Of a stretch of 37,267 bases of DNA, positions 1 through 37,267 are shown one piece after another. A program made the position numbers and the translations under genes. A model generated the notes under the pieces. It had not been told where the DNA came from and ran no database searches. It was given only the letters and a program-made list of their open reading frames with translations. Numbering within the stretch: the first letter of the stretch is position 1; every line of letters begins with the position of its first letter. Origin of the DNA: an uncultured Actinomycetes bacterium (GTDB lineage: Bacteria > Actinomycetota > Acidimicrobiia > Spongiisociales > DATADW01); the NCBI GenBank assembly GCA_963824995.1, contig CAWGRK010000001.1, forward strand, positions 263,094-300,360, read 5' to 3'.

Positions 1-406
1 CCCGCAACGGGAGTTGCTGCTGAGCGGTATCGGCGCCCAAGCGGATCGCCGTCGAGTTGCCCTCGTGCCAGTTGACGATGACCACCCGCTCAACGCCGGC
101 AAGCGCCAGTCCCTCGCACACGTCGACGATCAGGGCGGCGAGGGTCTCGGGCCTGACACTGAGCGTTCCCGGCCAGGAGAGGTGATACGGAGCCACCCCG
201 ACCGGCGTGAGCGGTAGGACGGGTGCCGCCAGGCGCTCACCGACCCGCAGGGCGATGGTGAGGGCGGCGAAAGCATCGGTCCCAAGTGGCAGGTGACCGC
301 CGTGCTGCTCGATGCTCCCCGTCACCAGAACCGCCGTCCCCCGCGCCAGCGCCTCCTCGGCCTCGGGTTGCGTCATGTTCCCGAGAAGCACTGCGTCGTG
401 ACTCAA
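1..406 (-). CDS. Creatininase-family protein (3' end runs off the window)
   Basis: Not in the ORF track. Manual minus-strand translation gives (M)SHDAVLLGNMTQPEAEEALARGTAVLVTGSIEQHGGHLPLGTDAFAA...PYHLSWPGTLSVRPETL...VIVNWHEGN. TTG start at 406 follows a GAGGGAG RBS; alternative ATG at 376. Confidence 0.88.
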   Translation of the reverse strand, partial: MSHDAVLLGNMTQPEAEEALARGTAVLVTGSIEQHGGHLPLGTDAFAALTIALRVGERLAAPVLPLTPVGVAPYHLSWPGTLSVRPETLAALIVDVCEGLALAGVERVVIVNWHEGNSTAIRLGADTAQQQLPLR

Positions 407-437
407 GTCCGATCTCCCTCCGCTCCCATCGCCTTGC

Positions 438-449
438 ACAAACGGTTGT
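438..449. promoter_or_regulatory. Putative LacI-family operator ACAAACGGTTGT
   Basis: Near-perfect palindrome with central CG, between a minus-strand TAGTGT -10-like box (456-461) and the creatininase start; recurs across the window. Confidence 0.7.
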
Positions 450-466
450 TCAGAGACACTAACCCG

Positions 467-1500
467 TCAGGTTCGGGGCGGAGCCGTCGACCCCCTGACC
501 ACCAACTCGGGTTCGACGAGTTGGGTCTCGGGCGGCATGGCCGGATCGGAGATCGTCGCCAGCAGACTCCTCGCCGCCATCGAGCCGAGCTCGTACTGCG
601 AGATGCGCACCGTGGTCAGCGGTGGTGAGAACCGGTCGCTGTAGGGCATGTCGTTGAAGCCCACCACCGAGACGTCCCCTGGGCAGGTCTTGCCTCGTTG
701 CCTGATGGCATCGATAGCACCCAGGGCGAGGCGATCGTTGGCTGCGACCACGGCGGTGGTCTCAGGCATTTCATCGAGCAGTTCACCCGTCACCCGGTAG
801 CCCTCCTCCTCGGTGTGACGGTGAGCGAAGCCGCGACCCCCGGCCAGACCGGCTTCTCGGAGTATCTCCTCGAAGGCGCCGAGGCGGTTGACGGTGGAGG
901 ACACGTCCTTCGGTCCCCCCACGTGCACGATGTTGCGATGCCCCAGCGAGAGGAGGTGTTCGACGGCCATCCTCGTCCCGGCATGATCGTCGGGTAGCAC
1001 GGCGCTGATGGAGGAGATGGCGGTGGCACGGTTGAACAGGATCACCGGTATCCCCTCATCGACCAGTCCGGCGAGCACCCGATCCTCGTCCCTTGCCACG
1101 CCGTACAGCAGTCCTTCGGCCTGGACGCCGAGCATGGCCGATACCTGCACCTCGGCATGGCCGGGGTCGTCGTCTGTACTGGCGAGTAACAGCGAGTAAC
1201 CGTCGGCGGAGAGGACATCACCTGCACCCGCGTGATCCCCGCCTGGTACAGGTTGGCCACATCCGGGACGACCATCCCGACGACGAGCGTCCGTCCGGTG
1301 CGCAGGGCGCGGGCGATGGTGTTCGGCCGGTAGCCCAACCTCCGGGCGACGTCCCGGATGCGATGCTCGGTGTCCTGGGTGATCCGACCGGCGGCCGCTC
1401 GGTCGTTGAGAACACGGGAGACGGTGGAGACGTGCACTCCCGCCTCGCGAGCGACATCACGCAGCGTCGGCTTGGTACCCCTGGTCTCGTTTTCAGACAC
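467..1500 (-). CDS. LacI-family transcriptional regulator (one frameshift near 1228, probably a sequencing indel)
   Basis: N-terminal [25 protein letters not shown]...[17 protein letters not shown] lies in ORF 1042..1611; the ligand-binding domain ([32 protein letters not shown]) lies in ORF 467..1150. Adding one G to the CGGG run near 1228 joins them. Confidence 0.93.
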
Positions 1501-1594
1501 GGAGGCGAGCGTACCGAAGCGTGGTTCACCACCCATACGGAACGGACCGTCCCGTGGTTTCCTAGCTTGGGCAGCTCTAGGAAGGCCAGGAAAG

Positions 1595-2761
1595 ATGCAT
1601 CCCGAGGACACGTCCGGATTCCGACTCGTCGGCCACTCCGACCTTGGGGGCTATGGCGACGGAATGCAGGTCATGCCCCACGGAGATGTTCTCTTCGTCG
1701 GCCACTTCGGCCCCAGCGGCAAGGGAACCTCGATCCTCGACATCTCGGACCCCACGGCGCCGCAGATGATCCGGCAGTGGGATGCCCCCCCGGGGTCGCA
1801 CACCCACAAGGTGCAGGTGGCGGATGGCCTCTTGCTGGTCAACCACGAGCTGTTCCGGAGCGAGGGACCGGCGCCGGTGGGTATGGCGGTGTACGACCTC
1901 GATGACCCGGAGAGCCCGGCGCAGGTCGGCTTCTTCGACACCGGCGGGCGGGGCGTTCACCGGATCGTCTACGAGGGCGGCGACCTCGCCTACATCTCGG
2001 CGACACCTGACGGCTACCGCGGCCGGATATGGCAGATCGTGAACGTATCCGATCCGACCAATCCGACCGAGACGGGACGCTGGTGGTGGCCGGGTATGTG
2101 GGAAGGCGGCGGCGAGATCCCGGAGGCGCCGACCGGCGAGGAGTGGCAAGCCCACCACGCCCTGGTCCATGGCGAGCGCGCCTATCTGGGCTTCTGGGAC
2201 GGCGGGATGGTCATCATCGACATATCCGATCTCGCCAGGCCGAGGACGATCTCACGCCTCGGATGGGAGGAGGGAGGGCACACCCACACGGCGCTTCCGC
2301 TGCCCGATCGCAATCTGGTGGTGGTCACAGACGAGGCGGTCACCGAGGGCTGCGACGGGGACAGACACATGGTGAGGATCGTGGATGTCACCGACGAGAC
2401 CGCCCCCTTCGTCCGATCGATCTGCCCCGTCCCCGAGGGGGACTTCTGCGAACGGGGCCTCCGGTTCGGGGCGCACTGCCTCCACGAGAACCGCCCCAAC
2501 AGCTATCGAAGCCAGGAGCTGTTGTTCGTCACCTACTTCAACGCCGGTCTCAGGGTGTACGACACCGCCGACCCCGACCACCCCGTCGAGGTTGCCCACT
2601 GGATTCCCGACTGCCCCCCCAACCAGGCAGCGGCCCAGATCAACGACGTCTTTGTCGCCGAAGATCACACCGTGTACGTGACCGACAGGGTCAACGGTGG
2701 CGTCTACATCCTCGAGCCCGACGCGGCACTCTCCGCACACATGACGCGTTCGGCAACATGA
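1595..2761 (+). CDS. LVIVD-repeat (beta-propeller) protein, His-rich, putative metallo-hydrolase
   Basis: Repeated ILDISDP / VYDLDDP / IVNVSDP / IIDISD / IVDVTD / VYDTADP units; His motifs HTHKVQV, GVHRI, AHHAL, HTHTALP, FGAHCLHENRP. ATG at 1595 follows AGGAAAG. Confidence 0.85.
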   Translation: MHPEDTSGFRLVGHSDLGGYGDGMQVMPHGDVLFVGHFGPSGKGTSILDISDPTAPQMIRQWDAPPGSHTHKVQVADGLLLVNHELFRSEGPAPVGMAVYDLDDPESPAQVGFFDTGGRGVHRIVYEGGDLAYISATPDGYRGRIWQIVNVSDPTNPTETGRWWWPGMWEGGGEIPEAPTGEEWQAHHALVHGERAYLGFWDGGMVIIDISDLARPRTISRLGWEEGGHTHTALPLPDRNLVVVTDEAVTEGCDGDRHMVRIVDVTDETAPFVRSICPVPEGDFCERGLRFGAHCLHENRPNSYRSQELLFVTYFNAGLRVYDTADPDHPVEVAHWIPDCPPNQAAAQINDVFVAEDHTVYVTDRVNGGVYILEPDAALSAHMTRSAT

Positions 2762-2855: not shown

Positions 2856-2884
2856 AGGCGGTGGGTTCGGGACCGCCGAGGTGG

Positions 2885-2928
2885 TCAGTGCAGCTCGATC
2901 AGCGCAATTCGGTTCAGCGCAACTCGGT
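2885..2928 (-). repeat. Three imperfect 14-15 bp direct repeats of the permease 3' end, each including the stop codon
   Basis: Plus strand: tcagtgcagctcga / tcagcgcaattcggt / tcagcgcaactcggt; the last copy is the real gene end (TELR*). Confidence 0.75.
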
Positions 2929-3852
2929 TCTGGGGTCGAGGACGTCGCGCAGACCGTCACCGACCAGGTTGAACGAGAGCGCCCAGAGGAACACCATGAG
3001 ACCGGGGATGGTCGAGGTCCACCACCGCCCGGCGACGATGTCAGCCTGGCCCTCGCTGACCAAGGTCCCCCACTCCGCCTGACCGGCGACCGAGAGCCCG
3101 ATGAACGCCAGCGTGGCGCCAAGCAGCAGGGCGTGGCCCATGTCGAGCGTCGCCTGCACCGCCACCGGTGTGAACGAGTTGGGCAGGATGTCGCGCCTGA
3201 TGATCCCGAACCTGGAGTCGCCGATTGCACGCGCCGCGTCGACATCGTCCTCTTCGCGAACCTGGAGGATCTGGCTTCGGATGATCCGGGCATAGCGCGC
3301 CCACATGATGAATGCCAGCGCCACGACGATGTTGATGAAAGAGGGGCCGAGGATGGCGGCGATGGCTAGCGGGAAGATCAGCGCCGGGATGGAGAGGAAG
3401 ACATCCACGACGCGCATAAGGAAGGCATCGACCTTGCCACCGACGATCCCCGCGGTGCACCCCACGATCAGCCCGATGAAAACGGCTCCGGCGACGACGT
3501 AGAGCGACAGCAGGAGGGACAGTCGGGCACCCCAGACGACCCCGTACAGGACGTCACCCCCGAGGCGGGTGGTGCCCAGTGGATGGCCCTCGGTACCGGG
3601 GGGGACCGCCACCGAACTCAGATCTCTCGGCATCTGATAGGCGCCGCGGGGGTTCTCGGGGACGAGGAGCGGGGCGAATATCGCCATGCCGATGAGAACG
3701 AAGATGATGATGGCCCCGACCCTGGTGCTCCCTCTGCTGAACACGTCCTTCGTCGTGGACCACAAACGCTTTGTTCTGACCTTGAAAGGCGTTTCGTGGA
3801 CGACCTCAGGCGGGGGTGCGGCCTCGACCTGGGGGACCGTCTCGATCGACAT
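2914..3852 (-). CDS. ABC transporter permease, DppC/OppC family
   Basis: HPLGTTRLGGDVL, GARLSL, DAFLMRVVDVFLSIP, EAA-like loop DAARAIGDS, AEWGTLV; several TM segments. Confidence 0.93.
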   Translation of the reverse strand: MSIETVPQVEAAPPPEVVHETPFKVRTKRLWSTTKDVFSRGSTRVGAIIIFVLIGMAIFAPLLVPENPRGAYQMPRDLSSVAVPPGTEGHPLGTTRLGGDVLYGVVWGARLSLLLSLYVVAGAVFIGLIVGCTAGIVGGKVDAFLMRVVDVFLSIPALIFPLAIAAILGPSFINIVVALAFIMWARYARIIRSQILQVREEDDVDAARAIGDSRFGIIRRDILPNSFTPVAVQATLDMGHALLLGATLAFIGLSVAGQAEWGTLVSEGQADIVAGRWWTSTIPGLMVFLWALSFNLVGDGLRDVLDPRTELR

Positions 3853-3854
3853 GG

Positions 3855-4865
3855 CTATGCCTTCCTCAAGACGACGCGGCGATCGAGGTACCCGTAGAGG
3901 ACGTCGACGATCATGTTGATCGTCAAGAAGAGGATGCTGGTGAAGATGACAAACGCCAGCGTCGTCGCCTGGTCACCGCTCAGGACGGAACTGGCCATCC
4001 AGCTGCCAAGCCCCGGCCACCCAAAGATGGTCTCGACCACCACGGTGCCCTCGAACATGATCCCGACCGAGATCCCGATGACGGTGATCGTCGGGATGAA
4101 GGCGTTCCGCCGGGCGTGCCGCCGGACCACGAGGCGCTCGGGGAGACCACGGGCGCGGGCGGCATCGACGTAGTCCTTGCCCATCTCCTCGAGCAGCGAG
4201 GAGCGCATCATCCTGGCCACGATGCCGACCGCGGCATATCCGAGGGTGATCGCCGGTAGGACCAGATGCCAGATGGCGTCCCGTAGTGCCTCGAAGCTCC
4301 CGGCGATGATCGAGTCGATCACGTAGAAGTTGGTGGGATGGGCGATGCTGTTCCAAATCTCCGGATCCGACCGTCCGTGGGGAAACCACCCCAGGTTGGC
4401 CCAGAAGACGATGAGGAGGACGATCCCCAGCCAGAAGGTGGGCATGCTCGCCCCTCCCACTGCGAAGATGCTGGAGACCTGATCGGGCCATCGGTTCCGG
4501 CGCCGTGCGGCGAAGGTCCCGATTCCGACGCCGAGGGTGACTGCCCAGAGTGCCGCGGCGGCGCCCAGCTCGAAGGAGGCGCCGATCTTGTCGGGGAAGA
4601 CGTCGATCACCGGCGCGGCGGCAACCGCCGACCAGCCGAACTCGCCTTGAAACACCCCGCCGAGCCATGCCAGGTATTGCATGGGTACCGGTTCGTCGAG
4701 GTTGAACCGCTCCTCGAGGGCTGCGACCTCTTCGTCGGTCATGCCCGGTTCGAGGTAGGGGCCGATGGTGGTCCCACCGAGCCGGGTCAGGCTGAACACG
4801 AGGACGCTGACCGCCAGGATGACAAGAGGCAGTGCCAGCAGCCTTCGACCGATGTACCTATGCAA
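3855..4865 (-). CDS. ABC transporter permease, DppB/OppB family
   Basis: YIGRRLL, LDEPVPMQYLAWL, HLVLPAITL, DYVDAARARGL, ETIFGWPGLG, DVLYGYLD. Confidence 0.94.
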   Translation of the reverse strand: MHRYIGRRLLALPLVILAVSVLVFSLTRLGGTTIGPYLEPGMTDEEVAALEERFNLDEPVPMQYLAWLGGVFQGEFGWSAVAAAPVIDVFPDKIGASFELGAAAALWAVTLGVGIGTFAARRRNRWPDQVSSIFAVGGASMPTFWLGIVLLIVFWANLGWFPHGRSDPEIWNSIAHPTNFYVIDSIIAGSFEALRDAIWHLVLPAITLGYAAVGIVARMMRSSLLEEMGKDYVDAARARGLPERLVVRRHARRNAFIPTITVIGISVGIMFEGTVVVETIFGWPGLGSWMASSVLSGDQATTLAFVIFTSILFLTINMIVDVLYGYLDRRVVLRKA

Positions 4866-4926
4866 CCTTCAAGCTCCTGAGAGCCAGCCTAGGCAACCCT
4901 CCCCGATACCGAACTCGACCGATGCC

Positions 4927-6624
4927 TCACTTGTCGTACAGCGCCCAGTACTGGGAGGGCCGGGGCCACATCGGGTTCTCCACGTGACCCTGGACCCAAT
5001 CGCCGCGGGCCGATGGTGCACCCTCGTTGGCCGGCATGATCCACGCTGCCTCTTCGTAGAGCACCGTCTGGATCTCGGAGAGGATCTCGAGCCGCTCTTC
5101 TTCGTCGAGTGTCGTTCGAGCGGCTGCGACCAGGTCGTCCACCCGCTGAGCGTCGGTGTATCCGTCGGCGAAGCTGTTCACAGCCCCGTACCGGCCATCT
5201 GATTGCGCGGCGTCGAACAGGTAGGCGTCGGGGGTGCTGTACTGCGAGCTCGTGTAGGACCACATCCCCACCGGCAGCGGGTCGGTCGCCAACTGCTCGT
5301 CGAATTGCGCCTCAGGCAGCTGCACCACGTTTATGTGGAAGTTGGGGTTGAGCGCCTCGATGCTGTCCTTGAGAGTCAGCGCCGCTCCGGTGAAACCCTC
5401 GTGGGTCTGGTCGGTGATGATCGAAACGGTGAATCCCTCCTCCCAATAGCCGGCCTCGGTGAAGAGCTGCTCGGCCATGGCGGGATCAGTGGGATAGACC
5501 GGTGCGTCAGGGTCGTGTCCGTACATGTCGACCGGGAGGACGAAGCTGGCGCGGCCACCCAGACCACCGAGGATCCCGTCTATGTAGCCCTGATAGTCGA
5601 ATGCGTAGTTGAAGGCCTGCCGCACCCGCACGTCCTGGAAGAAGTCGGGCGGGATGGTGTCACCATCGGGAAGCTCGGCGATGTTCATGTTCATCCCGAT
5701 GAGGAGCACCTGGAGGTCCAGGGTGGTGGTGTCGACCTCTGCATGCTCGATCGGCTCGATCGAAGGCACATCGGTGGGGCTGATGTCGACGATGTCGTAC
5801 TCCTGAGCCTGCAGACCCGTGGCCGGCGAGTCGACGATCAACTCCCAGCGCACCGGCAGGTGGGCCGGCTCGCCCCAGTAGTCGGGGTTGATGTCAAAAC
5901 TCATCCGGTCGGCACGCTCCCAGGAGGTGAGGGTGTAGGGACCGCTTCCGACCATGTTCTGTGCCATGTACTCGTTGGGTGTATCAGCCTCGACGCCACC
6001 GTTGGCCTCGACTGCGTCCATGCTGACGACGCTGGCCACGGGGTGGGCAGCCAGAAAGGCAAGGAAAGAGGCGTCGACCGCTTTCAGCGTCACCTCGAAG
6101 GTGAGGTCGTCGACCGCCTGGAACGATGCCACGTTCTCGAACAGTGGGGCTTGACCCTCGGGAAGGTTCATCTCGATGACCCGGTTCCACGAGTACTCGA
6201 CGTCTTCGGCGGTGAGGTCGGTCCCATCAGAGAAGACGACACCCTCGCGGAGAGGGAAGGTGTAGGTGAGTCCGTCTTCCGAGATCAACTCGTTCTCGAT
6301 GGTGGGAACCTCAGTGGACAGCGAGGGAACGGGAGAACCGCCATCCGGGGGAATGGCCACCAACCGGTCGTAGACATTGAGGATCACGTTCATGCCGACG
6401 TCATTCCCGTTCACCGCAGCCGGGTCGAGGTCGAAGACGTCGTCATTCACCGTCACGACGAGCACATCCGGGTTTGGAACGTCACCGCTCGGCTCCCCGC
6501 CTGCAGCGGTCGAACCCGAAGCGGCGGTCGTGTCCGCAGTGGTGCCTTGCCCGCACGCTGCCACGACCAGCGGAAGAACGGCGCACAGGGCCAAGATCCT
6601 CCGCGCAATCGAAGCTCGTCCCAT
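4927..6624 (-). CDS. ABC transporter substrate-binding lipoprotein, family 5 (DppA/OppA-like)
   Basis: ATG at 6624 after GAGGAGG; lipobox LVVAAC; LDPA, SEDGLTYTFPLREGVVFSDG, GSGPY, DVRVRQAFNYAFD. Confidence 0.93.
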   Translation of the reverse strand: MGRASIARRILALCAVLPLVVAACGQGTTADTTAASGSTAAGGEPSGDVPNPDVLVVTVNDDVFDLDPAAVNGNDVGMNVILNVYDRLVAIPPDGGSPVPSLSTEVPTIENELISEDGLTYTFPLREGVVFSDGTDLTAEDVEYSWNRVIEMNLPEGQAPLFENVASFQAVDDLTFEVTLKAVDASFLAFLAAHPVASVVSMDAVEANGGVEADTPNEYMAQNMVGSGPYTLTSWERADRMSFDINPDYWGEPAHLPVRWELIVDSPATGLQAQEYDIVDISPTDVPSIEPIEHAEVDTTTLDLQVLLIGMNMNIAELPDGDTIPPDFFQDVRVRQAFNYAFDYQGYIDGILGGLGGRASFVLPVDMYGHDPDAPVYPTDPAMAEQLFTEAGYWEEGFTVSIITDQTHEGFTGAALTLKDSIEALNPNFHINVVQLPEAQFDEQLATDPLPVGMWSYTSSQYSTPDAYLFDAAQSDGRYGAVNSFADGYTDAQRVDDLVAAARTTLDEEERLEILSEIQTVLYEEAAWIMPANEGAPSARGDWVQGHVENPMWPRPSQYWALYDK

Positions 6625-6649
6625 GGGTGTCCTCCTCAGTTCCATCCTT

Positions 6650-6685
6650 GCGAACGGTTTCTCGATCGGTTGCCCAATCGTTTGC
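6650..6685. promoter_or_regulatory. Three abutting LacI-type operator-like 12-mers
   Basis: GCGAACGGTTTC / TCGATCGGTTGC / CCAATCGTTTGC at exact 12-bp spacing, directly downstream of a minus-strand TAGGTT -10-like box (6686-6691). Confidence 0.62.
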
Positions 6686-6821
6686 AACCTAACCAGCAAC
6701 GTAACTAGCTGAGCGTCCCAGTGTCAACCGATTCGGGGGTTCGATTCTCGGGCGCCCTCTTAGACGCATGGCGCCAACTCGCCACTATGGTCGCCCGCCC
6801 CCCTGCCACAGGAGCGACACC

Positions 6822-7988
6822 GTGGAGCCGACCGGCCGGTACCCCCAATTCAGCGAGGCGGAGAACGCCCGCCGCCAAGACCTGGTTCGGTCGTTCCTCG
6901 CCGAGTCCGGTCTCGACGGACTGGTGATATTTGGTTGGTCGGCTCAGAACCGCACCGCCCAGGCCGACGTCTACTACCTCTCCGGCTACCTGGGCATGAG
7001 GGACAACTACGTGGTATTCCCTCGTGACGGAGAGCCCACCCTCTTCGCCCAGAGCTACAACCACGTGCCCAACGCGGCGCAGGTCTCGTTCCTCGACGAC
7101 GTCAGGTGGGGTGGGGCCGACAATGGGGTGACCGTGGGGGAAGACCTCCTGGCTCGGGGTCTCGGTGAGCTGGGGGTGGTCGGCTGGATGCCATATCAGC
7201 AGTACGAGTCCATGCGGAGGACGACCGGCGACCGCTGTTCCTTCAGGGACGTGACCCGTGAGTTCCGCACGATCCGGCTCAAGAAGAGCGACGAAGAGTT
7301 GGAGTGGCTGAAGCGGGGGGCTGGCTTCACCGACGCCGCCCTCGCCGGGCTGCGCGATGCACTTTCCCCCGGCATCAAGGAGTACGAGTTGGCGGAGGCA
7401 ATCGAGCACTCCTACCTCGGTGCCGGCGGGTTGACCACCTTCTATTACATCGCATCGACACCGATGAGCAGTCCGGACCGATGCGTTCCGGCACAGGTCC
7501 TGAGCAATCGGGAGATCGAGGCGGGTGACGTGGTGACCTGCGAGCTCAGTGCCTCTTATGCCGGCTATGCCGGTCAGGGTCTTCGCACCTACACCGTGTC
7601 ACAGGAACCCACGCCCCAGATCGCCGAGCTTCATGCCCTTGCCGAGGCCGTGTACCACGAGGTCGCCGCCGCCATCCGGCCCGGCGCCGGGGCCGAGGAG
7701 GTGTGGGGGGCGTCTGAGGGGATATCCGAAAGCGGATTCAGCATCAGGGACGACCTGTTGCACGGATACGGCATCGGGTTGTTGCCGCCCTGGATCCGCA
7801 CCAGGCAGACCACCCACGGGCGGGACGACGACTGGATCTTCGAGGCCGGCCAGACGATCGTGATACAGCCCAACGTCATCACCCAGGACGAAACCGCAGG
7901 GGTCCAGGTGGGCGAACTGTGCGTGGTCACCGACGATGGAGCGGTCTCGCTGCACTCCTTCCCGCTCGAGCTGATCAGGGCGGGTTGA
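6822..7988 (+). CDS. M24 (pita-bread fold) protein with creatinase-type N-terminal domain and non-canonical active site
   Basis: YPQFSEAENARR N-terminus, IRLKKSDEELEWLKRG, PGIKEYEL, GDVVTCELSASYAGY, HGYGIG. GTG at 6822 follows AGGAG. Confidence 0.85.
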   Translation: MEPTGRYPQFSEAENARRQDLVRSFLAESGLDGLVIFGWSAQNRTAQADVYYLSGYLGMRDNYVVFPRDGEPTLFAQSYNHVPNAAQVSFLDDVRWGGADNGVTVGEDLLARGLGELGVVGWMPYQQYESMRRTTGDRCSFRDVTREFRTIRLKKSDEELEWLKRGAGFTDAALAGLRDALSPGIKEYELAEAIEHSYLGAGGLTTFYYIASTPMSSPDRCVPAQVLSNREIEAGDVVTCELSASYAGYAGQGLRTYTVSQEPTPQIAELHALAEAVYHEVAAAIRPGAGAEEVWGASEGISESGFSIRDDLLHGYGIGLLPPWIRTRQTTHGRDDDWIFEAGQTIVIQPNVITQDETAGVQVGELCVVTDDGAVSLHSFPLELIRAG

Positions 7989-8030
7989 CCGGGTCACCGC
8001 GGGTGAGCGGGAAGAGTGATGGAGGTCCGC

Positions 8031-8042
8031 ACAAACGTATGC
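8031..8042. promoter_or_regulatory. Putative LacI-family operator ACAAACGTATGC
   Basis: Sits in the GCACAAACGTATGCGC palindrome, just upstream of a TAGCGT -10-like box (8048-8053) ahead of the aldolase gene. Confidence 0.68.
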
Positions 8043-8133
8043 GCTGCTAGCGTCCCGACCAGGCCCGCAGGCCTTTCCGCAGCGGGGCGCGCCGCGAGCA
8101 ATGTATGCCGGCGCTGGAGAGGAGACACCGATC

Positions 8134-9117: not shown

Positions 9118-9147
9118 TTGGCCGTAGTTGCGCCAGAAGGAGAACCG

Positions 9148-11637: not shown

Positions 11638-11664
11638 GCGGAACCTGAGCAGAGAGGCGACCCA

Positions 11665-21307: not shown

Positions 21308-21320
21308 CGGTGCTCCTCCT

Positions 21321-24482: not shown

Positions 24483-24488
24483 GGGCCG

Positions 24489-29715: not shown

Positions 29716-31995
29716 ATGGCCGCCGACCAGCAACGGCCCCTCTATCAGCCGGTTGCCCCTCGGCGCCGGGAGGATCAACGCCTGATCACCGGCGCCGGCC
29801 GCTTCGTCGCCGACCTGGCGCCGGCGGGAACCCTCCACCTCGCCTTCGTCCGTAGCACCGAGGCCCATGCGCTGATCCTCGAGGTGGACACCACCGAGGC
29901 GGCGCAGGCCCGGGGAGTCGCCCTGGTGGCCACGGCGGCCGATCTCGACCTGCCCGACATCCCCGGTGGCTCGCTCGCGGTGAGCGGTGACGGTTTCGCC
30001 CGTCCCCATCTCGCCAGGGACCGGGTGCGGTACGTCGGCGAGCCGATGGCGGTGGTAGCCGCCGAGACGGCGGCGCTGGCAATGGACGCTGCCGAGGCGA
30101 TCTGGGTCGAGTACGAGCCGTTGCCCGTGGTGGCCGATCCGGCGACCGCCATCACCGACGGAGTCATCCTCCACCCTGCGGCGGGGACCAACGTGGTCGA
30201 GCAGTGGGAACTGGGGTCGACTGCCGGCAGAGACGGCGATCGGCTGGCGATCGAGTTGACCGTCAACAACCAGCGACTGGCGCCGGTGGCTGTCGAGCCA
30301 CTCGCCATCCTGGTCGAGCCTGGAGCGGACGGGACATTGACCGTGTGGTGCGGCCACCAGCGGCCCCACGAGCTTCGTGACCGGCTGGCAAGACTCCTCC
30401 GTATGGATCCGGCGGCGATCAGGGCGATCGTCCCCGACGTCGGCGGCGCCTTTGGGATGAAGGGGATGATGTTCCCCGAGTACACGGTTGCCGCCGCCAT
30501 GGCGATCCGGTTGGAACGACCGGTCATCTGGGCTGAGCGGCGCCGGGAGCATCTCTCAGGAGGGACCCACGGGCGTGGCTCCACTCACACGGTGCGGCTC
30601 GTCGGGTACAGGGATGGCCGGATCGTCCGGGCGGAACTGGCGGAGCTGGCCGACGTCGGCGCCTATCCGCACAACGGCTCCTCGATCCCTGCCTTCTCCC
30701 GCTACGTGGCCACCGGTCTCTACGACTTCCCGGAGGTCCACATCAGCACCACCACCGTCGTGACCAACCGGGCCCCGACGGGCTCCTACCGCGGTGCGGG
30801 AAGACCGGAGGCGGCGTACGCCATCGAGAGAGCGATGGACGCCTACGCCAGGGAGGCCGGCCTCGATCCAGTCGAGGTGAGGCTGGCGAACTTCATCAGG
30901 GATCTCCCCTTCACCACGGCAACCGGCGCCATCTACGACTCGGGCGACTACGCCGCAGCGCTGCGCAAGGCGGTGGACCTGTTGGGCCTCACCGAGGTCC
31001 GGCGGGTCCAAGAGGAGCGCCGCACCGGGGGAGGTCGGCCGATCGGTGTCGGGATCGGAGCATTCGTCGAGCGGGCCGGCGGTCGAGTGGACACCGGCGA
31101 GTACGGCAGGGTGGAGGTCGGTCCCACCGGGGATGTCACGGTGCGGACCGGGTCCACCTCGTCGGGACAGGGACACGAGACCGTGTGGCCCGAGGTGGTC
31201 GCCTCGGCCCTCGGGCTGCCGTCGGACCGGGTGGCCCTCGTTGCCGGCGACACCGCGAAGGTGGCCAGGGGAACAGGCACCGCGGCCAGCAGGTCTGCCC
31301 AGATCGGCGCGTCGGCGGCGTGGCGTACCGCACTGGTGGTCCGCCAACGGGCTGTCGCCCTGGCCGCCGATCTGTTGGAGGCCGCCCCCGTGGACATCGA
31401 GGTCTCCGACGGCCGGTTCACCGTCGCCGGCGTGCCCGGTGCCGGTGTCACCTGGGACGAGGTGGCGGCGAGGGCCGAGGAGCACGGTGTCGAGCTTGCG
31501 GCCGAGGAGTGGTACGTCCCGGGCGCCCAGACCTTCCCATATGGCGTGCACCTCGCGGTGGTCGAGGTGGACATCGACACCGGTGAGGTGAGCCTGTCGA
31601 GGATGGTGACCGTCGACGACTGCGGCACCGTGCTCAACCCGATGGTCGTCCAGGGACAGATCGAGGGATCGTTGCTCCAAGGCATAGGGCAGGCGCTGTA
31701 CGAGCGCGTCGTCTACGACGAAGCGGGGCAACTGCTCACATCGACGCTGGTCGACTACCAGCTCCCCCGGGCAGCCGATGCGCCCCCGCTGACCCATGCC
31801 CGCCTCGTCCATCCCGCCCCCTCCAACCCGCTCGGGGTGAAAGGCGCCGGGGAGGCGGGGTGCATCGGGGCGCCGCCCGCCATCGTCAACGCTGTCCTCG
31901 ACGCACTGGCGCCATACGGCGTGACGCACCTCGACATGCCGCTCCACCCGGCGACGGTGTGGGAGGCGATCCAGGCCGCCCGGTCGGACCGCTAG
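29716..31995 (+). CDS. Xanthine dehydrogenase-family molybdopterin-binding large subunit (form II CoxL-like)
   Basis: RREDQRLITGAGRFVAD, VRYVGEP, DVGGAFGMK, active-site loop GSYRGAGRPEA, GQGHET, SRSAQ, GQIEG, GVKGAGEAG. Confidence 0.93.
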   Translation: MAADQQRPLYQPVAPRRREDQRLITGAGRFVADLAPAGTLHLAFVRSTEAHALILEVDTTEAAQARGVALVATAADLDLPDIPGGSLAVSGDGFARPHLARDRVRYVGEPMAVVAAETAALAMDAAEAIWVEYEPLPVVADPATAITDGVILHPAAGTNVVEQWELGSTAGRDGDRLAIELTVNNQRLAPVAVEPLAILVEPGADGTLTVWCGHQRPHELRDRLARLLRMDPAAIRAIVPDVGGAFGMKGMMFPEYTVAAAMAIRLERPVIWAERRREHLSGGTHGRGSTHTVRLVGYRDGRIVRAELAELADVGAYPHNGSSIPAFSRYVATGLYDFPEVHISTTTVVTNRAPTGSYRGAGRPEAAYAIERAMDAYAREAGLDPVEVRLANFIRDLPFTTATGAIYDSGDYAAALRKAVDLLGLTEVRRVQEERRTGGGRPIGVGIGAFVERAGGRVDTGEYGRVEVGPTGDVTVRTGSTSSGQGHETVWPEVVASALGLPSDRVALVAGDTAKVARGTGTAASRSAQIGASAAWRTALVVRQRAVALAADLLEAAPVDIEVSDGRFTVAGVPGAGVTWDEVAARAEEHGVELAAEEWYVPGAQTFPYGVHLAVVEVDIDTGEVSLSRMVTVDDCGTVLNPMVVQGQIEGSLLQGIGQALYERVVYDEAGQLLTSTLVDYQLPRAADAPPLTHARLVHPAPSNPLGVKGAGEAGCIGAPPAIVNAVLDALAPYGVTHLDMPLHPATVWEAIQAARSDR

Positions 31996-32995
31996 CCGTC
32001 GAGCCCGAGCAGGGCTGCCGCCGTGTTCCCCAGGATGGCGGCAGCATCGCCCTCGTCGAGTCGCTCGACCTTTCCGATCAGACCTACCGGGTCGGGCTCA
32101 CCCATGTCGTAGGGGTAGTCGCTCCCGAGGACGATCCGACCGGCGCCAAAGCGGTCGATCAGATAGCTGAGTTGGTCGGTTCGGAACACGACGGTGTCGA
32201 ACCAGAAGCGCTCCAGGTACTCACCCGGTGGCTTTGGGCAGCCCCTCCCTGACATCGGCCCTGGCGTGATAGGCGTGATCGAGCCGTCCCGCATATGCGG
32301 GGAGGAACCCGCCACCGTGGGCGAGTATCACGTGGAGGTCGGGATGACGCTCCATCACGCCGTCGAAGATCAGGTTGGCGATCGCCATGGTCGCTTCCCA
32401 TGGATGCCCGAGAATGTTGACGAAGTAGTGGTCCGCCAGCCTGGAGCGCTCCACCGGACCGCTCGAGTGGATGAGCACCACTGCACCCAGTTGCTCCACC
32501 CGGGTCCAGAACGGCTCGAGCCGTTGCGACGAAAGCTCTTCACCGTCGACATGGGTGGCCATCTGCACCCCGCGGAACCCGAGCTCGCCGACGCACCGCT
32601 CGAGCTCGGCGATCGCGGCGCCGGTGTCCTTGAGCGGGACGGTCCCCAGCCCGACGATCCGATCTGGGTGCCCGGCGATGGCCTCGGCCAACTCGTCGTT
32701 GACCACCCGGAACACCCGGTCGGCGAGCTCCGGTTCGGCCCAGTCGTAAATCTGATACGGCGCCAGTCGAGACCGCCTGGACGTCTACTCCCATCCGGTC
32801 CATGTCGGCGAGTCGGCGATCGATCGATGTCATCTGGGGCTCCAGTTGGAGGCGGAGCCGGCGATTGACCTCCTTTGTCAGTTCGTTGCCCACTGCCAGC
32901 GGGAGACGGCCGGCGCGCTCCGCCTCCTGACGCATCATCTCCATCGCCGGGGCGCACTCACGGTGGGCGTGAACGTCGACCACCCGAACGGTCAT
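31992..32995 (-). CDS. Amidohydrolase-2 family (ACMSD-like), frameshifts near 32762 and 32232
   Basis: VVDVHAH...[12 protein letters not shown] (ORF 32540..32995), LGHPWE and AHGGGFLP (ORF 32221..32715), FWFDTVVF and [10 protein letters not shown] (ORF 31992..32315). Confidence 0.88.
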
Positions 32996-33020: not shown

Positions 33021-33678
33021 TCACCTCTTCGGTGCCTTTACGGGGAGTGCCACGTGGCGCTGTGTCAGGTCGATGGCGCCGGCGACATCGCGGGCCCGCA
33101 TCGCCTCGAAGAGGGCGACGTGCTGGCGGTTGGCCTCTGCGCGGAACCCTGCATGCCGCTCCAGGGCGGCGCTGACGTACATCATCACGGGATCCTGGAG
33201 CGTGTGGAGGACGGCGATCAGCCGGCGCGACTGGGCTCCCTCGTAGAGGGTGTCGTGGAACCTCCTGTTCCACTCGACCCAACGCTCCGACCCGGGATCG
33301 GCCAGCATCTCCGCCAGCACCGCGCCGGCCCGCTCCAGCATGTCCTCGTCGAGCCCGGCTATCGCCTCCTCGACCGCCACCGGTTCCAGTAGGTGCCTGA
33401 TCCGCACGACCTCGTCGATCTCGGCCCTGTCGAGCGAGCGGACTATCCCGCCCCGGTACGGGTCCATCTCGATGAAGCCCTCGGAGGCGAGAATGCGGAA
33501 TGCCTCGCGCACCGGTGTGGTGCTCACGCCGAGCGCCCCCGCCACCTCGGCCAGCGCAAGCGGTGTCCCGCCGGGGAAGATCTCCGTTGAGGATGGCGCG
33601 GCGCAATCTCGATCGCACAAGTTCGCTCGCAGTGAGCCGCGGCTGCTCGCCGGCGTTGCCTTGAGCAAGCCTCTCCAT
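33021..33678 (-). CDS. GntR-family (FCD) transcriptional regulator, frameshift near 33575; the true stop may be at 32992
   Basis: MERLAQ...[11 protein letters not shown], then [46 protein letters not shown]. Confidence 0.88.
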
Positions 33679-33713: not shown

Positions 33714-34464
33714 TCAGGTCGCGACGAGGTCGAGCGACTCGAACTTGCGCAGCAGCTCGGCCTTGGCGAGCGCGACCTCGTCGGCGGCGGCATCGCGCGG
33801 GAACGGCAGGTCGATCGAGATGTCGTCCTCGAGCCGCCCGCCCTTGGCGAAGAGGAGGATCCGGGTCGAGAGCTCGACCGCCTCGCTCACGTCGTGGGTG
33901 ACGAACAGGACCGTCTTGCCGGTCGCCTGCCACAGCTCGTGCAGCTCGCGCCGCAGCGTGCGGCTCGTGATCGCGTCGAGGTGGCTGAACGGCTCGTCCA
34001 TGAGCAGCACGTCGGGCTCGATCGAGAAGGCGCGGGCGATGCCGACCCGCTGCTGCATGCCGCCGGACAGCTGGCCGGGGTAGGTCTTGGCGCGTGCGGC
34101 GAGCTCGACCATCTCGAGGAACTTCACGCAGCGCGCCCGGGCCGCGTCGTCGCGCACCCTCTGGACGAACAGCAGGTTGTCGATCACGGTGCGCCACGGC
34201 AGCAGCCGGGCGGCCTGGAAGACGTAGCCGAGCCTCGCGCGCGGTCGCCCTCGCGGTGACCTCGACCTCGCCGGAGGTCGGCGTCTCGATGCCGCTGAGG
34301 ATGTTCAGCAGCGTCGACTTGCCGCAGCCCGACGGGCCGACGACGCTCACGAACTCGTGCCCGGACACCTCGAAGACGCGTCCTCGAGCGCCACGACCGT
34401 GAGTCGGTGTCGAGACGATCGTGCCTTGCGGAGGTTCTGGAACTCCTCGCCAGGATTCGCGCAC
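33714..34464 (-). CDS. ABC transporter ATP-binding protein, TauB/SsuB-like (frameshifted)
   Basis: Walker [10 protein letters not shown]; signature [18 protein letters not shown]; Walker B LLMDEPF; FVTHD. Pieces lie in different frames. Confidence 0.88.
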
Positions 34465-34473
34465 GCTACTCGC

Positions 34474-35327
34474 CTATGGCCTTCTCGGTGCGCCGGGTCC
34501 CGCGGCCGCCAGCGGAACACTCGCGCCGACAGCCGGCCGAAGATCAGGCGCTCGACGATCAGCGCGAAGATGACGAAGAACAGGGCGTAGCCGACGATCC
34601 CCTGCGCGCGGTGGGCGTCGTACCAGAACTTGATCGTCCAGCCGGCGCCGTTGGTCGAGGCGAACAGCTCGGCGAGCACGAGGCCCTTCCACGCGTTGGC
34701 CAGCGCGTAGCGCAGCGCCGCGAAGAAGAACGGCATCAGCGACGGGAAGATCACGTGGCGGATCGAGTCGCGCCGCCGCGACGCCGTACGCCCGTGCGCC
34801 ATGTCGAGCAGGTCCTTGGGCACGTTGCGGACGCCCTCGGCGACGTTGATGACCACGAACGTCCACGCGGCGAGCACGACCGTGATCAGCGGCGCGATGG
34901 TCGCCGAAGCCGAACCACATCGCGGCGATCAGCGCCCACACCAGCGACGGCATCGCGAGGCCGACGACGACGAAGTCGTGGCCGAACCAGTCGCCTTCTT
35001 CGACAGCCCCATCAGCAGGCCGATCGGGATCCCGATCGCGAAGGCGATCGCCAGGCCGAGGCTGAGCCGCCGCAGGCTCAGTCCCGAACGCCTCGTAGAC
35101 CGTCTGCGGCGCCAGCGTGTCGCCGCGGATCTCGTCCCACATGAACTCGGCGACCTCGGCCGGGGTCGGGACGAGCAGCGTCGGCAGCAGCGGGATCGAG
35201 AGCTGCCAGACGACCAGGAAGGCGACCCGAGGCGAAGTCGCGCGCGAAGCGGGGGGATCGCAGAACGCGGATGCGGCCGCTCCGTGCGCTCGCGGGCGTG
35301 GGGCGGGCGGAGGGCGACGACGCTCAC
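34474..35327 (-). CDS. ABC transporter permease, TauC/SsuC-like (several frameshifts)
   Basis: VPTPAEVAE, SLRRLSLGLAIAFAIGIPIGLLMG, EGVRNVPKDLLDMA, RHVIFPSLMPFFF, AWKGLVLAELF. Confidence 0.82.
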
Positions 35328-36173
35328 TGGCCACCTCCGGCCGCCAGCGGTAGAAGCGGTTCATCTGGCGCTGCAGCACGCCGCGCTCGAGCAACAGCGC
35401 GAAGGCGAAGAAGAGCAGCACCCAGGCCAGGAAGCCGGCCATGTTGAACGACTGGAACTCGCCGCCGCATCATGAAGCCGATGCCCTCGGTGCCCACGAT
35501 CACCTCGATCAGCGTGGCGATCTTCCAGCTGACCGAAGCCGTAGCGGGCGGCGGTGAAGAAGAACGGCGCCAGGAACGGCAGCAGGACGTGGCGCAGGAC
35601 GCGGTGCTGCGGCACGTTGAACGCGCGCGCCATGTCGTCGAGGTCCTTCGGCGCCGCCTTGACGCCCTCGACGACGTTGACGGCGACGTAGGAGAGGCTC
35701 GTGACGATCACGCAGACGATCGGGCCGAGCGCGCCGAGCCCGAAGATCATCGCGCAGACGAGCGCGAAGACCAGGCCGGGCGTGGTCAGCGTGACCATCA
35801 CCCAGTCGCCGAGGAACGCCTCCCACCAGCGGCTGCGGCCCATCGCGATGCCGATCACGGTGCCGATCACGAACGCGATCGCGAAGCCGATCGCGATGTT
35901 CGTCAGCGTGGCCGCGAAGTGCGTGACCAGCTGGTCGGAGGTGATGATCGCCCACATCTCCTCGGCGATCACCGCGGGCGGCGGCAGGATGAAGTCCTGC
36001 ACCAGGTGAGGTCGAGGTGAACTGCCAGACGGCGAGGAAGGTGACGTAGCCGACGGCGCGCAGCTCAGAGGCGGCGCGTCCGCCGGCGCGCCGTCTTGCG
36101 CGCCTCGGCTGATGGCCGTCGCTCCGCCGCCGTCGGGACGGGCGCGGGCCGGCGCCGTTGCGCTCGCCGACAC
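35324..36173 (-). CDS. ABC transporter permease, TauC/SsuC-like (several frameshifts; ends approximate)
   Basis: ILPPPAVIAE, IAIGFAIAFVIGTVIGIAMG, EGVKAAPKDLDDMARAF, RHVLLPFLAPFFF, LLERGVLQ...YRWRP. Confidence 0.82.
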
Positions 36174-36179
36174 GTCTTG

Positions 36180-37267
36180 GCGGTCGGCGGCTCGACCGCC
36201 TCGAAGGCCGGCACCTCGGTGTCGGACCTCCATGAACTCAGTCGGTCTCCTTCATGAGGTCGTAGAGCTTCGTCTCGTTGTTGATCCACTCGTCGTCGAG
36301 GAAGACGCTGTCGACGAACCAGTCGTGGCTCGGCGATGTAGTCGCTCGTGATCGGCGACGTCCTCGTCCTCCTCGACCGCGAAGTGCTGCGGGTAGGTGA
36401 CGGATGATCTCGGCCTGGTTGTCGCGCCAGCCCTTGATGCCCTCCTCCCAGAGGGCGAGGAAGGCCGCGGCCTCCTTCGGGTGGGCGTCGTACCACTCCG
36501 TGGTGGCGGTGAAGTTGTTGCCCATGATCCCGGCGTGGCTCGCACGGCAGCAGATGTCGCCGTAGACCTCGTACGGCGAGCTTGCCGTCGTACATGACCT
36601 CGAGCTCGCCCTTGCGCAGGTAGCGGGATCGCGGCCTCGGGGATGGCCAGCGCGGCCTCGATGTCGCCGCGGACGACGTGCTCGGGCATCACGAAGTGGT
36701 CCTCGACGACGAGCTCGAAGTCGCCGCCGCCGACGCGGAAGTCGAGGTCGTGCAGTTCTTGCGGCGTACATGCCCCACACGAGCGTCGAGGAGACGGCGC
36801 TCGGGACGCCGATCTTCGAGCCCTTGGGGATGTCGGCGAGCGTCGTGTAGCTGCCCGGGCGCGGCGAGCGGCGTGATCCGGGCAGGTTGTACTTGCCGAA
36901 GGTGACCGTCGCGATGCCGGTCTTCTCCTCCAGCAGCGGGAGCTCGTAGGTCGCGGTGGAGACGATGTCGCCGTGACCGCCGGCGAAGTACGCGAACTCG
37001 TCCCAGGTGGAGGAGGTCACGATCCGGATGTTGTTGCTCCTCCTCGTACTTCACGATGATCCCGTTGTCGTTCATGTAGTCCCACACGGGATCGGGGGCG
37101 AACGCGAAGCGGATGATCTCCGCCCCGCCCGATTCCTCCTCGGCCGCCTCGTAGTCGGCGGTGCCGGTCCCGCCGGCAGCCGTCGTCCCGGTATCGCCCG
37201 AGTCGCCGCCACATGCAACGGCGAGAAGCGCTATCGCCAATAGGAGTACTCCGACACGCCGCGTCGA
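36180..37267 (-). CDS. ABC transporter substrate-binding lipoprotein, NMT1/TauA-like (many frameshifts; ends approximate)
   Basis: Lipobox LLAVAC near 37210, IRFAFAPDPVWDY, TLADIPKGSKIGVPS, WYDAHPKEAAAFLALWEEG; first gene of the Tau/Ssu-type operon. Confidence 0.72.

Follow-up and report, generated by a model that had tools for sequence, protein, structure and literature searches.

The haloalkylphosphorus hydrolase Sb-PTE of Sphingobium sp. TCM1 (PDB 5HRM/5IOJ) is a seven-bladed beta-propeller, a fold shared by an LVIVD-repeat protein encoded in the 37,267-nucleotide stretch of an uncultured Acidimicrobiia genome that we analyse here and call the window (G000:C1:263094-300360; assembly GCA_963824995.1). 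The two proteins differ in that their identity is 18% and the LVIVD protein is ~100 residues shorter, cytoplasmic and encoded within a sugar-type operon. Other genes of the same cluster have their closest solved relatives elsewhere. Two Amidohydro_2 proteins, a and b, are nearest to the branch of ACMSD, LigW, gamma-resorcylate decarboxylase and iso-orotate decarboxylase (185 and 195 bits against human ACMSD), but match no NCBIfam model and lack kynurenine, lignin and resorcylate partner genes. The best solved relatives of an alpha/beta hydrolase, FrsA2, are the fungal polyketide-shortening enzyme Ayg1 (8QD1) and 2,6-dihydroxy-pseudo-oxynicotine (DHPON) hydrolase (2JBW); FrsA2 has the Ser nucleophile motif, but neither a polyketide nor a nicotine gene context.

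Whole pathways compare in a similar way. The Thermotoga-type myo-inositol route, as we understand it, uses IolG (Gfo/Idh/MocA family), IolM (a scyllo-inosose 3-dehydrogenase of the medium-chain dehydrogenase/reductase (MDR) type) and IolN (a creatininase-fold 3-dehydro-scyllo-inosose hydrolase). The cluster in the window has the same three folds, with its creatininase-fold genes paired with dehydrogenases, but the scores are far under the cut-offs (212 versus 450, 116.7 versus 355 and 55 versus 245 bits), an IolO-type epimerase and downstream uronate genes are absent, and the route has no counterpart to the LVIVD, ACMSD-type, M24 and Ayg1-type enzymes of the cluster. Creatinine and ectoine degradation resemble it in placing a creatininase fold beside M24 plus Creatinase_N proteins, and relatives of the cluster add EutB- and EutC-like folds, but equivalog scores fail widely and sarcosine oxidase and DoeB/C/D are missing. 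The initial annotation, which read the window as one co-regulated catabolic island for a ring compound, recognized no described pathway with this gene set. This agrees with our NCBIfam scan of 38 proteins, in which none of the matches listed attains its curated cut-off, with the best solved relatives, which are distant or lack an assigned function, and with the literature, where titles and abstracts yielded no paper on the present gene set or on cytoplasmic LVIVD enzymes.

We find that the window has, very probably, the architecture of a module mosaic with an LVIVD-centred core conserved across one Acidimicrobiia order. We lean towards reading it as a juxtaposition, specific to this genus, of four or more catabolic and transport modules that are each conserved separately, and not as one pathway. 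Its distinctive result is the pair formed by the LVIVD protein and its ACMSD-type partner, together with a natural fusion of the LVIVD protein to a GH4 glycosidase.

The LVIVD propeller and its ACMSD-type partner

The LVIVD gene (1595..2761, plus strand, start placed from orthologues) encodes a cytoplasmic protein of 388 aa with seven propeller blades. Its AlphaFold2 (AF2) model (pLDDT 94.5) has Sb-PTE (5hrm) as top Foldseek match (E 7.8e-16, TMq 0.75), well ahead of generic WD40 propellers, and an hmmsearch profile of 31 family members matches 5hrm over residues 38-383, nearly full length (E 9e-15). In its seven-bladed fold and full-length profile likeness, the protein thus belongs with the Sb-PTE-type propellers. 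It is probably a binuclear-metal enzyme and anchors the conserved core. The His and Glu residues that we take to be the metal ligands of Sb-PTE coincide with, or lie close to, H231, E247 and H297, which are invariant in the LVIVD family. If the ligand numbers that we assume are used and the two PDB chains are shifted by 87, the alignment puts the ligands at His or Glu residues, and these either coincide with invariant H69, H188, H231, E247 and H297 or lie 2-12 residues off. One presumed Glu ligand aligns to His69, so the LVIVD metal site would differ from that of Sb-PTE.

The family is large and functionally anonymous. At E ≤ 1e-5 it holds 3140 clusters among 8000 scored; those of the 120 best-listed clusters that bear a name are called only 'hypothetical protein' or 'LVIVD repeat-containing protein', and most bear none. 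A look-up in the ESM Atlas returned LVIVD clusters only, none with a function. Within the class, an orthologue is present in 26 of 401 sampled genomes, all from one order.

In most other genomes the gene directly after LVIVD encodes the ACMSD-type protein Amidohydro_2 a, and the two form the tightest pair of the neighbourhood. The pair is conserved in at least five sampled families of the order. In the window, Amidohydro_2 a lies at 14013..15066 on the plus strand, with its N terminus (MITDVHAHC) in another frame; it scores 185 bits against human ACMSD, and the DVHAHC sequence carries its N-terminal metal-binding signature. Amidohydro_2 b (24525..25517, minus strand) scores 194.9 bits against human and 169 bits against bacterial ACMSD over its full length. 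Pfam scores for Amidohydro_2 (PF04909) are 128-146 bits, with the N-terminal HxH metal motif present. The third paralogue, Amidohydro_2 c (32062..32990, minus strand), is not in one frame (Pfam 99.5 bits on 32221-32715); DNA similarity extends it to full length, with 32062-32987 matched in G013 and G027, and its protein, judged from the G027:C19 counterpart, is ~43% identical to b.

The pair also occurs in another actinobacterial lineage, where the LVIVD protein is fused to a GH4 redox-glycosidase. The fusion protein, of 850 aa, has an N-terminal GH4 domain closest to 6-phospho-beta-glucosidases (216-221 bits) and a C-terminal LVIVD half 63% identical to the window protein. Its 90%-identity cluster has 14 members from several sources, including 11 of 850 aa, one of 665 and one of 394. 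On one metagenome contig (L133:9758-13557) the fusion gene has a divergently oriented TetR gene on one side and an ACMSD-type gene after it, with no transporter nearby. Among the 401 genomes of the class no fusion was found; all 27 matches span the LVIVD half only. The fusion may tie the LVIVD/ACMSD pair to glycoside chemistry, and we regard it as some support for a glycoside substrate.

Several relatives carry a second LVIVD paralogue, 32-36% identical, just downstream of the pair (L037:12210-13391, L039:12207-13385, L071:12125-13393 and L108:11868-13046).

Synteny and modular distribution

Within the genus the cluster is largely intact. From position 3 to ~31996 the window is collinear in four of five congeners at 82-92% DNA identity; synteny stops near 31996, and the last ~5 kb is not syntenic even with congeners. 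In other families of the order only parts of the window recur. To follow these parts, we aligned LVIVD orthologues and found that 148 of 215 candidate stretches of the genome collection encode a relative. The 80 loci retained all come from metagenome-assembled genomes (MAGs), the majority labelled Acidimicrobiia or Actinomycetota. Neighbours were counted at those 40 loci that had 8 kb or more of sequence on either side, as genes of at least 40% identity within 10 kb of LVIVD; these loci are kin, from related MAGs, and are not independent samples. Rows from G010 derive from an unpublished genome, and the conclusion on modules is unchanged without them.

The counts fall into distinct ranges. DppD of the Dpp-type importer and Amidohydro_2 a each lie near LVIVD at 30 of the 40 loci, followed by the importer genes permC (28) and permB, DppF and SBP5 (27 each), a SnoaL-like gene (25), LacI and the MDR dehydrogenase MDR' (21 each), creatininase 1 (20), FrsA2 and M24a (19 each), the DHDPS-fold lyase (17) and M24b (13). 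The CrtI-like and dienelactone-hydrolase-like (DLH) genes reach 8 loci each, Gfo and creatininase 2 reach 6 each, and the large subunit of a molybdenum (Mo) hydroxylase (MoLg) reaches 5. 2-Hydroxyacid dehydrogenase b and the regulator GntR1 were each seen at 1/40, and Amidohydro_2 b, the dehydrogenase MDR g24, the cyclic amidohydrolase and the glyoxalase at 0/40 each. When 56 loci were clustered at 85% LVIVD identity, giving 37 groups, the core families recurred in 10-25 groups. The core of other families consists of a LacI-type regulator, LVIVD, the ACMSD-type amidohydrolase, the Dpp-type importer, a creatininase/MDR/SnoaL operon, M24-DHDPS-M24 and Ayg1/DHPON-type hydrolases. Between families proximity is retained while gene order and orientation change, and the gene upstream of LVIVD varies between genomes, such that the LacI/LVIVD spacer is not comparable by phylogenetic footprinting.

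Heterocycle-type genes of the window make units of their own. On G027:C19 and G016:C130, MDR g24 is grouped in a trio with GntR and 2-hydroxyacid dehydrogenase b, and on G019:C285 and G010:C107 the two dehydrogenases stand side by side without a GntR match; Amidohydro_2 b lies near trio genes on G027:C19 and is also found on G013:C64. A Gfo paralogue (Gfo') is the partner of the cyclic amidohydrolase on G013:C41, G019:C67 and G010:C113, and on G013:C41 this pair is followed by an ATP-binding cassette (ABC) system homologous to the right end of the window. These units are located on contigs other than that of the LVIVD core (G013, G027, G016:C130) or >40 kb away from it (G016:C2).

Co-occurrence in other genomes, which the initial annotation had proposed as a test, is therefore borne out by the neighbourhood counts for the LVIVD-centred core, and the idea of one single-substrate gene set is not supported, as the heterocycle-type genes form separate conserved units in other families. 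Juxtaposed modules account better for the mixture of sugar-type and heterocycle-type genes.

Relatives add genes that the window lacks. A gene of the threonine-synthase type (PRK08197, 394 bits, which exceeds its cut-off of 303) stands immediately after the ACMSD-type gene at 19 loci of 11 groups (for example L102:11773-13224). Ornithine-cyclodeaminase-type, second DHDPS and S15-type peptidase genes also occur, as do a luciferase-like monooxygenase and TauE/SafE.

Transcription units and regulation

The coding strand changes 10 times across the window, which by itself divides it into at least 11 transcription units. Among all scanned open reading frames (ORFs) of at least 100 aa we found three different regulators, LacI and two GntR/FCD proteins, one fewer than had been counted before. 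Crude searches for a shared palindrome of 14-20 nt among 17 intergenic stretches, and for a shared 12-mer between promoter regions among 15 intergenic stretches, returned none; the only words common to intergenic stretches are heptamer microsatellites at gene ends. Given the strand alternation and the lack of a common palindrome or 12-mer in these searches, the proposal of one co-regulated island is unsupported. Within the long minus-strand array, 4-base overlaps join the cupin and Gfo genes (22388-22391) and the genes of 2-hydroxyacid dehydrogenase a and creatininase 2 (23520-23523), which suggests translational coupling there.

The microsatellites include GCCGTCC x4.6 after the LVIVD gene (2824-2855) and TCTGCCG x7.4 after the cyclic amidohydrolase gene (28636-28686). 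At 19580-19729, in the 423-bp gap between the glyoxalase and CrtI-like genes, AGTACTT x3.9 and its inverse CTAAGTA x3.3 flank ACGGCAG x3.1. A dispersed repeat of ~110-150 nt with GC-rich, hairpin-like arms lies at 12590-12738, between the DLH-like gene and the first major facilitator superfamily (MFS) gene; it has 41 additional matches in G000 (75-95% identity) and many more in congeners G001-G005.

Gene content of the window

The assembly comprises 2.9 Mb in 17 contigs, is 85% complete and has a GC content of 0.65-0.675. The window is the terminal 37 kb of a 300-kb contig, and the gene cluster is cut at its right edge, where the contig ends. To the left, the cluster extends 4.6 kb beyond the window, with two DppD/F ATPases, the SnoaL-like gene, the second MDR dehydrogenase (MDR') and the remainder of creatininase 1. 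ORFs were chosen by codon-position GC bias and scanned against Pfam and NCBIfam, and the statements below on regulator, mobility and housekeeping genes refer to the ORFs scanned. GC across the window is even (0.63-0.705) and agrees with that of the genome's contigs (0.649-0.675). A mobile genomic island was considered and rejected, as the window has no tRNA gene, no integrase or transposase among the scanned ORFs and an even GC content.

Most of the earlier gene-level reading holds. Pfam and NCBIfam confirm 20 enzymes (~20 had been claimed), among them two creatininase-fold, two M24, three alpha/beta, three Amidohydro_2, one cyclic amidohydrolase and one LVIVD protein, as well as the Mo-hydroxylase subunit, the flavoprotein, Gfo, MDR g24, the two 2-hydroxyacid dehydrogenases, the DHDPS-fold protein and the glyoxalase. 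The five transport systems are a Dpp-type ABC importer, three MFS proteins and a NitT/TauT-type ABC importer; no housekeeping or mobility gene occurs among the scanned ORFs. At the family level, Amidohydro_2 a and b were correctly called ACMSD-type and the hydrolases DHPON/Ayg1-type. The inventory had overlooked a small Cupin_2 gene between creatininase 2 and Gfo.

At the left end, creatininase-fold hydrolase 1 is represented by its N-terminal 146 aa (2..439, minus strand; Pfam Creatininase 131.6 bits); the full gene runs on to the left of the window (L001:127-939, 270 aa). The LacI-family regulator (467..1533, minus strand) is divergent from LVIVD and is recognized in two frames (Peripla_BP_3 132.9 bits in one, LacI helix-turn-helix 57.8 bits in the other). 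Beyond LVIVD lies the Dpp/Opp-type ABC importer (2914..6699, minus strand), with Pfam matches for the binding protein SBP_bac_5 (4927-6699) and two permeases (3855-4865 and 2914-3852); its DppD/F-like ATPases are left of the window (L033:15382-17975). M24a (6768-7988), the DHDPS-fold lyase (8101-9117) and M24b (9118-10422), identified by Pfam with Peptidase_M24 plus Creatinase_N domains in both M24 proteins and DHDPS in the lyase, form one co-directional unit on the plus strand (6768..10422).

The alpha/beta hydrolases and transporters follow. FrsA-like hydrolase 1 occupies 10456..11571 (minus strand), the DLH-like hydrolase ~11641..12569 (plus strand; Pfam DLH and Abhydrolase_3), MFS transporter 1 12752..14131 (plus strand; MFS_3, 183 bits), an EntS-like MFS transporter 15006..16249 (minus strand; Pfam and NCBIfam matches on halves) and MFS transporter 3 16306..17520 (minus strand; MFS_1, 209 bits). 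FrsA2, the second FrsA-like hydrolase, is at 17681..18829 (plus strand). A glyoxalase/VOC-fold protein (18866..19297, minus strand; 79.1 bits) is part of the island only among congeners.

The minus-strand array that comes next contains a CrtI/CrtO-like FAD oxidoreductase (19721..21382; Pfam Amino_oxidase, NCBIfam CrtO 246 bits versus a cut-off of 1000), the Gfo/Idh/MocA NAD(P) oxidoreductase (21321..22391; Pfam), the Cupin_2 protein (22388..~22762; 52 bits), creatininase-fold hydrolase 2 (22765..23523; 171.3 bits), D-2-hydroxyacid dehydrogenase a (23520..24503; 2-Hacid_dh_C 142.6 bits), Amidohydro_2 b and GntR/FCD regulator 1 (25527..26180; FCD 85.8, GntR 54.7 bits). The Cupin_2 gene has an equivalent place in G022, G017, G016, G027 and G011, at 40-53% identity. 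On the plus strand stand the Zn-dependent dehydrogenase MDR g24 (26299..27285; ADH_N and ADH_zinc_N), a cyclic amidohydrolase of the allantoinase/dihydropyrimidinase/dihydroorotase type (27288..28624; NCBIfam allantoinase 172 and 125 bits on halves versus a cut-off of 358), D-2-hydroxyacid dehydrogenase b (28727..29668; 173.1 bits) and the molybdopterin hydroxylase large subunit MoLg (29716..31995; MoCoBD_1/2 and Ald_Xan_dh_C). Beyond Amidohydro_2 c, the right end holds GntR/FCD regulator 2 (33021..33668, minus strand; FCD 74.7 bits) and the NitT/TauT-type ABC importer (33714..37267, minus strand), recognized from Pfam and NCBIfam pieces as an ATPase (33714-34395), permeases (34497-35268 and 35361-36233) and an NMT1-like binding protein (36247-37267) cut by the contig end, for which the NMT1 match was found on the G013 homologue.

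Likeness of individual enzymes to known families

No enzyme of the sugar- or amidine-type routes reaches its equivalog model. The full-length creatininase 1 scores 92.9 bits for creatininase, 84.2 for MftE and 55.2 for IolN, all under cut-offs, and is 37% identical to creatininase 2. The latter matches creatininases in the PDB at 48-55 bits and has the motifs EQHG..D and NWHEGN, to which we presume a role in metal binding. Against the creatininase equivalog (TIGR04448, cut-off 235) the two reach 92.9 and 77 bits, and against IolN (NF041098, cut-off 245) 55.2 and 35.1 bits. IolM (NF041097, cut-off 450) is the best label of MDR' at 212.4 bits, with MDR g24 at 127.2, and IolG (TIGR04380, cut-off 355) is the best label of Gfo at 116.7 bits; the PDB relatives of Gfo are 3db2 (273 bits) and 1,5-anhydrofructose reductase (123 bits). 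In conserved blocks, creatininase 1 is accompanied by the dehydrogenase MDR', and creatininase 2 by the dehydrogenase Gfo and the cupin.

The M24 proteins are likewise remote from ectoine hydrolase DoeA/EutD (TIGR02993 and NF038259, cut-offs 613 and 575), scoring 57.2/57.9 bits for M24b and 33.6/48 for M24a. The best solved relatives of M24b, prolidases and DoeA, reach at most 56 bits, placing it far from all solved M24 proteins. Of the five metal ligands that we take as usual for M24 metallopeptidases such as prolidase and aminopeptidase P (Asp, Asp, His, Glu, Glu), the two Asp positions, read by eye, appear to be Glu and Gln/Val in M24a and M24b. Both FrsA-like hydrolases belong to their family by Pfam score (PF06500, cut-off 22 bits; 48.1 and 44.5 bits) and by a GxSxG nucleophile motif (GVSLG and GISRG). 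FrsA2 matches Ayg1 (8qd1) at 108 bits and DHPON hydrolase (2jbw) at 60.5 bits; these two enzymes are, as we understand them, retro-Claisen C-C hydrolases of 1,3-dicarbonyls, and FrsA2 is a candidate for the same type of reaction by sequence likeness.

MoLg appears to be an orphan. We found no Fe-S or FAD partner gene nearby and no Fer2_2 gene on contig C1, where it lies at C1:293265; the four Fer2_2 small subunits of the genome, on C10, C6, C14 and C3, each adjoin another large subunit. Lacking these partners, the window does not encode a holoenzyme of the xanthine dehydrogenase family, and a working Mo-hydroxylase there is not supported. Two more large subunits of G000 (C2:310348, and C13:42072-42822 in two pieces) are also without a Fer2_2 match on their own contigs.

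Frame breaks

Left of 32 kb, six 1-nt indels put five genes out of frame: a deletion near 1229 in LacI, a break near 11907 in the DLH-like gene, whose orthologues (301-375 aa) match two frames, an insertion near 14103 in Amidohydro_2 a, insertions at ~15681 and ~15815 in the EntS-like MFS gene, and a deletion near 28069 in the cyclic amidohydrolase, whose frame is unbroken in both G003 and G004. Right of 32 kb the majority of genes also have broken frames, several of the NitT/TauT-type importer being split over two frames, and the last 3.7 kb holds at least three additional frame changes, mapped against G013:C41 homologues.

Such breaks could mean that the region is decaying into true pseudogenes, or that its right end is an assembly artefact, with little of it functional in the organism. 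The six indels and the further frame changes at the contig end are what this view has in its favour. We consider it very improbable, as each single-base indel among the aligned breaks left of 32 kb is unique to G000 when compared with three congeners, the congeners have different split genes of their own (~8 in G004, 6 in G002 and 3 in G003), and the broken genes retain codon-position GC bias. Short reads of other sequencing runs, each a small share (≤0.18) and represented as contigs, also speak against decay at two sites: the extra base at 14103/14104 is missing from two contigs (one DNA, one RNA-library), and that at 15681 is missing from one contig, which the other covering contig does not show. 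The comparison gave no indel rows at ~15815 and ~28069, and uncovered bins are uninformative. RNA-library contigs cover 29-30 of 30 bins, which is not proof of transcription. The frame breaks are probably errors of long-read MAG assembly; the frame changes of the last 3.7 kb may stem from error at a contig end or from decay. As a practical warning, several apparent pseudogenes here are most likely long-read indel errors.

Proposed modules and mechanism

Combining these results, we propose four modules. Module A would comprise the LacI-type regulator, a creatininase-fold hydrolase, the IolM-like MDR dehydrogenase and the SnoaL-like protein, with LVIVD and the ACMSD-type amidohydrolase divergent from them, and also the Dpp-type importer and M24-DHDPS-M24. 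Module B, often within 10-20 kb of A, would hold a 2-hydroxyacid dehydrogenase, creatininase 2, the cupin and Gfo, together with the CrtI-like flavoprotein, the DLH-like hydrolase and the Ayg1/DHPON-type hydrolases. Module C, putatively GntR-controlled, would consist of Amidohydro_2 b, MDR, 2-hydroxyacid dehydrogenase b, the cyclic amidohydrolase and the orphan Mo-hydroxylase large subunit, and module D of GntR, an ACMSD-type amidohydrolase and the NMT1-type ABC importer.

For modules A and B, we tentatively suggest a route in which a polyhydroxylated ring compound, cyclitol-like or a glycoside, would be imported and oxidized by the NAD-dependent dehydrogenases to ketones or 1,3-diketones. Creatininase-fold and Ayg1/DHPON-type hydrolases could then open these products hydrolytically, LVIVD and its ACMSD-type partner might carry out a metal-dependent hydrolysis followed by decarboxylation or hydration, and the 2-hydroxyacid dehydrogenases and DHDPS-fold lyase would pass on the fragments. 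This chain of steps is possible, although we would not call it the probable one. Cyclic diketones, one option of the initial annotation, fit the IolG/IolM/IolN-like and Ayg1-like enzymes. For modules C and D a different substrate is most likely, and this would probably be an N-heterocyclic carboxylate.

Alternative explanations

Several points weigh against this reading of the window and its mechanism. The gene content, the modular distribution, the fold of the LVIVD protein and the GH4 fusion are what the data show. Every catalytic step and the substrate class are inferred from family-level likeness, as no enzyme attains an equivalog cut-off, and the GH4 fusion, known from a single 90%-identity cluster, counts as one evolutionary event. 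Because the left 32 kb is intact in four congeners, shared use within the genus is possible; modules B and C, moreover, form one co-directional array in G000 (GntR1 through the CrtI-like gene), and the crude operator searches leave room for a common regulator that may be encoded elsewhere. The ACMSD-type paralogues in modules A, C and D could reflect one common chemistry. The ACMSD-type partner and the M24 pair are unexplained by a cyclitol or glycoside route, and the threonine-synthase-, ornithine-cyclodeaminase- and S15-peptidase-type neighbours in relatives point to amino-acid-like substrates. Finally, the loci counted are related MAGs rather than independent samples.

The initial annotation favoured the opposite view, in which all 37 kb would serve, as one co-regulated pathway, to degrade a single conjugate of a heterocycle with a polyol; its candidates were modified nucleosides, compounds resembling flavins or pterins, and glycosylated aromatics. 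Sugar-type and heterocycle-type enzymes do lie side by side with no unrelated genes intervening, 32 kb is collinear in four congeners, and the LVIVD/ACMSD pair with its GH4 fusion combines a glycosidase with an aromatic-acid-type decarboxylase. We nevertheless hold this view to be unlikely. Amidohydro_2 b, MDR g24 and the cyclic amidohydrolase occur at none of the 40 LVIVD loci and MoLg at five, the heterocycle-type genes make their own units elsewhere, either on separate contigs or tens of kb away from LVIVD and its core, three distinct regulators share no operator motif, the Mo-hydroxylase large subunit lacks its Fe-S and FAD partners, and the last 5 kb is non-syntenic even in congeners. Slightly less implausible, though still doubtful, is that the core equips the cell to use small peptides or cyclic amino-acid derivatives (proline or hydroxyproline peptides, ectoine- or creatinine-like amidines), taken up by the dipeptide-type importer and broken down by M24, S9/S15/S33-like and creatininase-fold amidohydrolases. 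The Dpp/Opp-type importer, with a permease whose best label is a D,D-dipeptide transporter (239 bits, under cut-off), fits such a diet, as do two M24 plus Creatinase_N proteins best labelled prolidase or ectoine hydrolase, alpha/beta hydrolases that also match Peptidase_S9 and S15 models, and the ornithine-cyclodeaminase-type, second DHDPS, threonine-synthase-type and S15 peptidase genes that relatives add. Yet the scores are far under cut-offs (DoeA 57.9 versus 575, creatininase 92.9 versus 235), the regulator is LacI-type, Gfo, MDR, the Ayg1-type hydrolase and the GH4 fusion indicate sugar or keto chemistry, and the M24 proteins, read by eye, seem to lack what we presume to be their usual Asp metal ligands.

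The substrate hypothesis least favoured here makes LVIVD a phosphoesterase and the core a route for degrading a sugar or cyclitol with a phosphoester link, for example a sugar phosphodiester or a glycerophospho-inositol-type head group; we regard it as improbable. In structure LVIVD is nearest to a phosphotriesterase, the GH4 half of the fusion most resembles 6-phospho-beta-glucosidases, SBP_bac_5 proteins can bind sugar phosphodiesters, and the threonine-synthase-type gene that follows the pair in relatives belongs to a family that removes phosphate from a phospho-amino acid. Against these stand the absence of any phosphatase, kinase or phosphate-related gene in the window, the lack of a role for the ACMSD-type partner and a metal site that would differ from that of Sb-PTE at the presumed Glu ligand. 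We keep the juxtaposition of separately conserved modules as our preferred account of the window.

Significance

The soil and sediment metagenomes that yielded relatives of this cluster commonly contain Acidimicrobiia; as these bacteria are mostly uncultured, their diet is poorly known. The 37-kb island is here recast as defined modules, each testable separately, and the LVIVD propeller with its ACMSD-type partner, known also as a GH4 fusion, offers a compact target for enzyme discovery. Solving this pair would provide a function for a large family and for the fold of a flame-retardant-degrading enzyme. It is conceivable, if rather unlikely, that the pair forms an undescribed two-enzyme step which, with the IolG/IolM/IolN- and Ayg1-like enzymes, would dismantle a glycosylated or cyclitol-type ring by oxidation, hydrolytic ring opening and decarboxylation; were that true, a natural, non-xenobiotic role of Sb-PTE-type propellers would be revealed.

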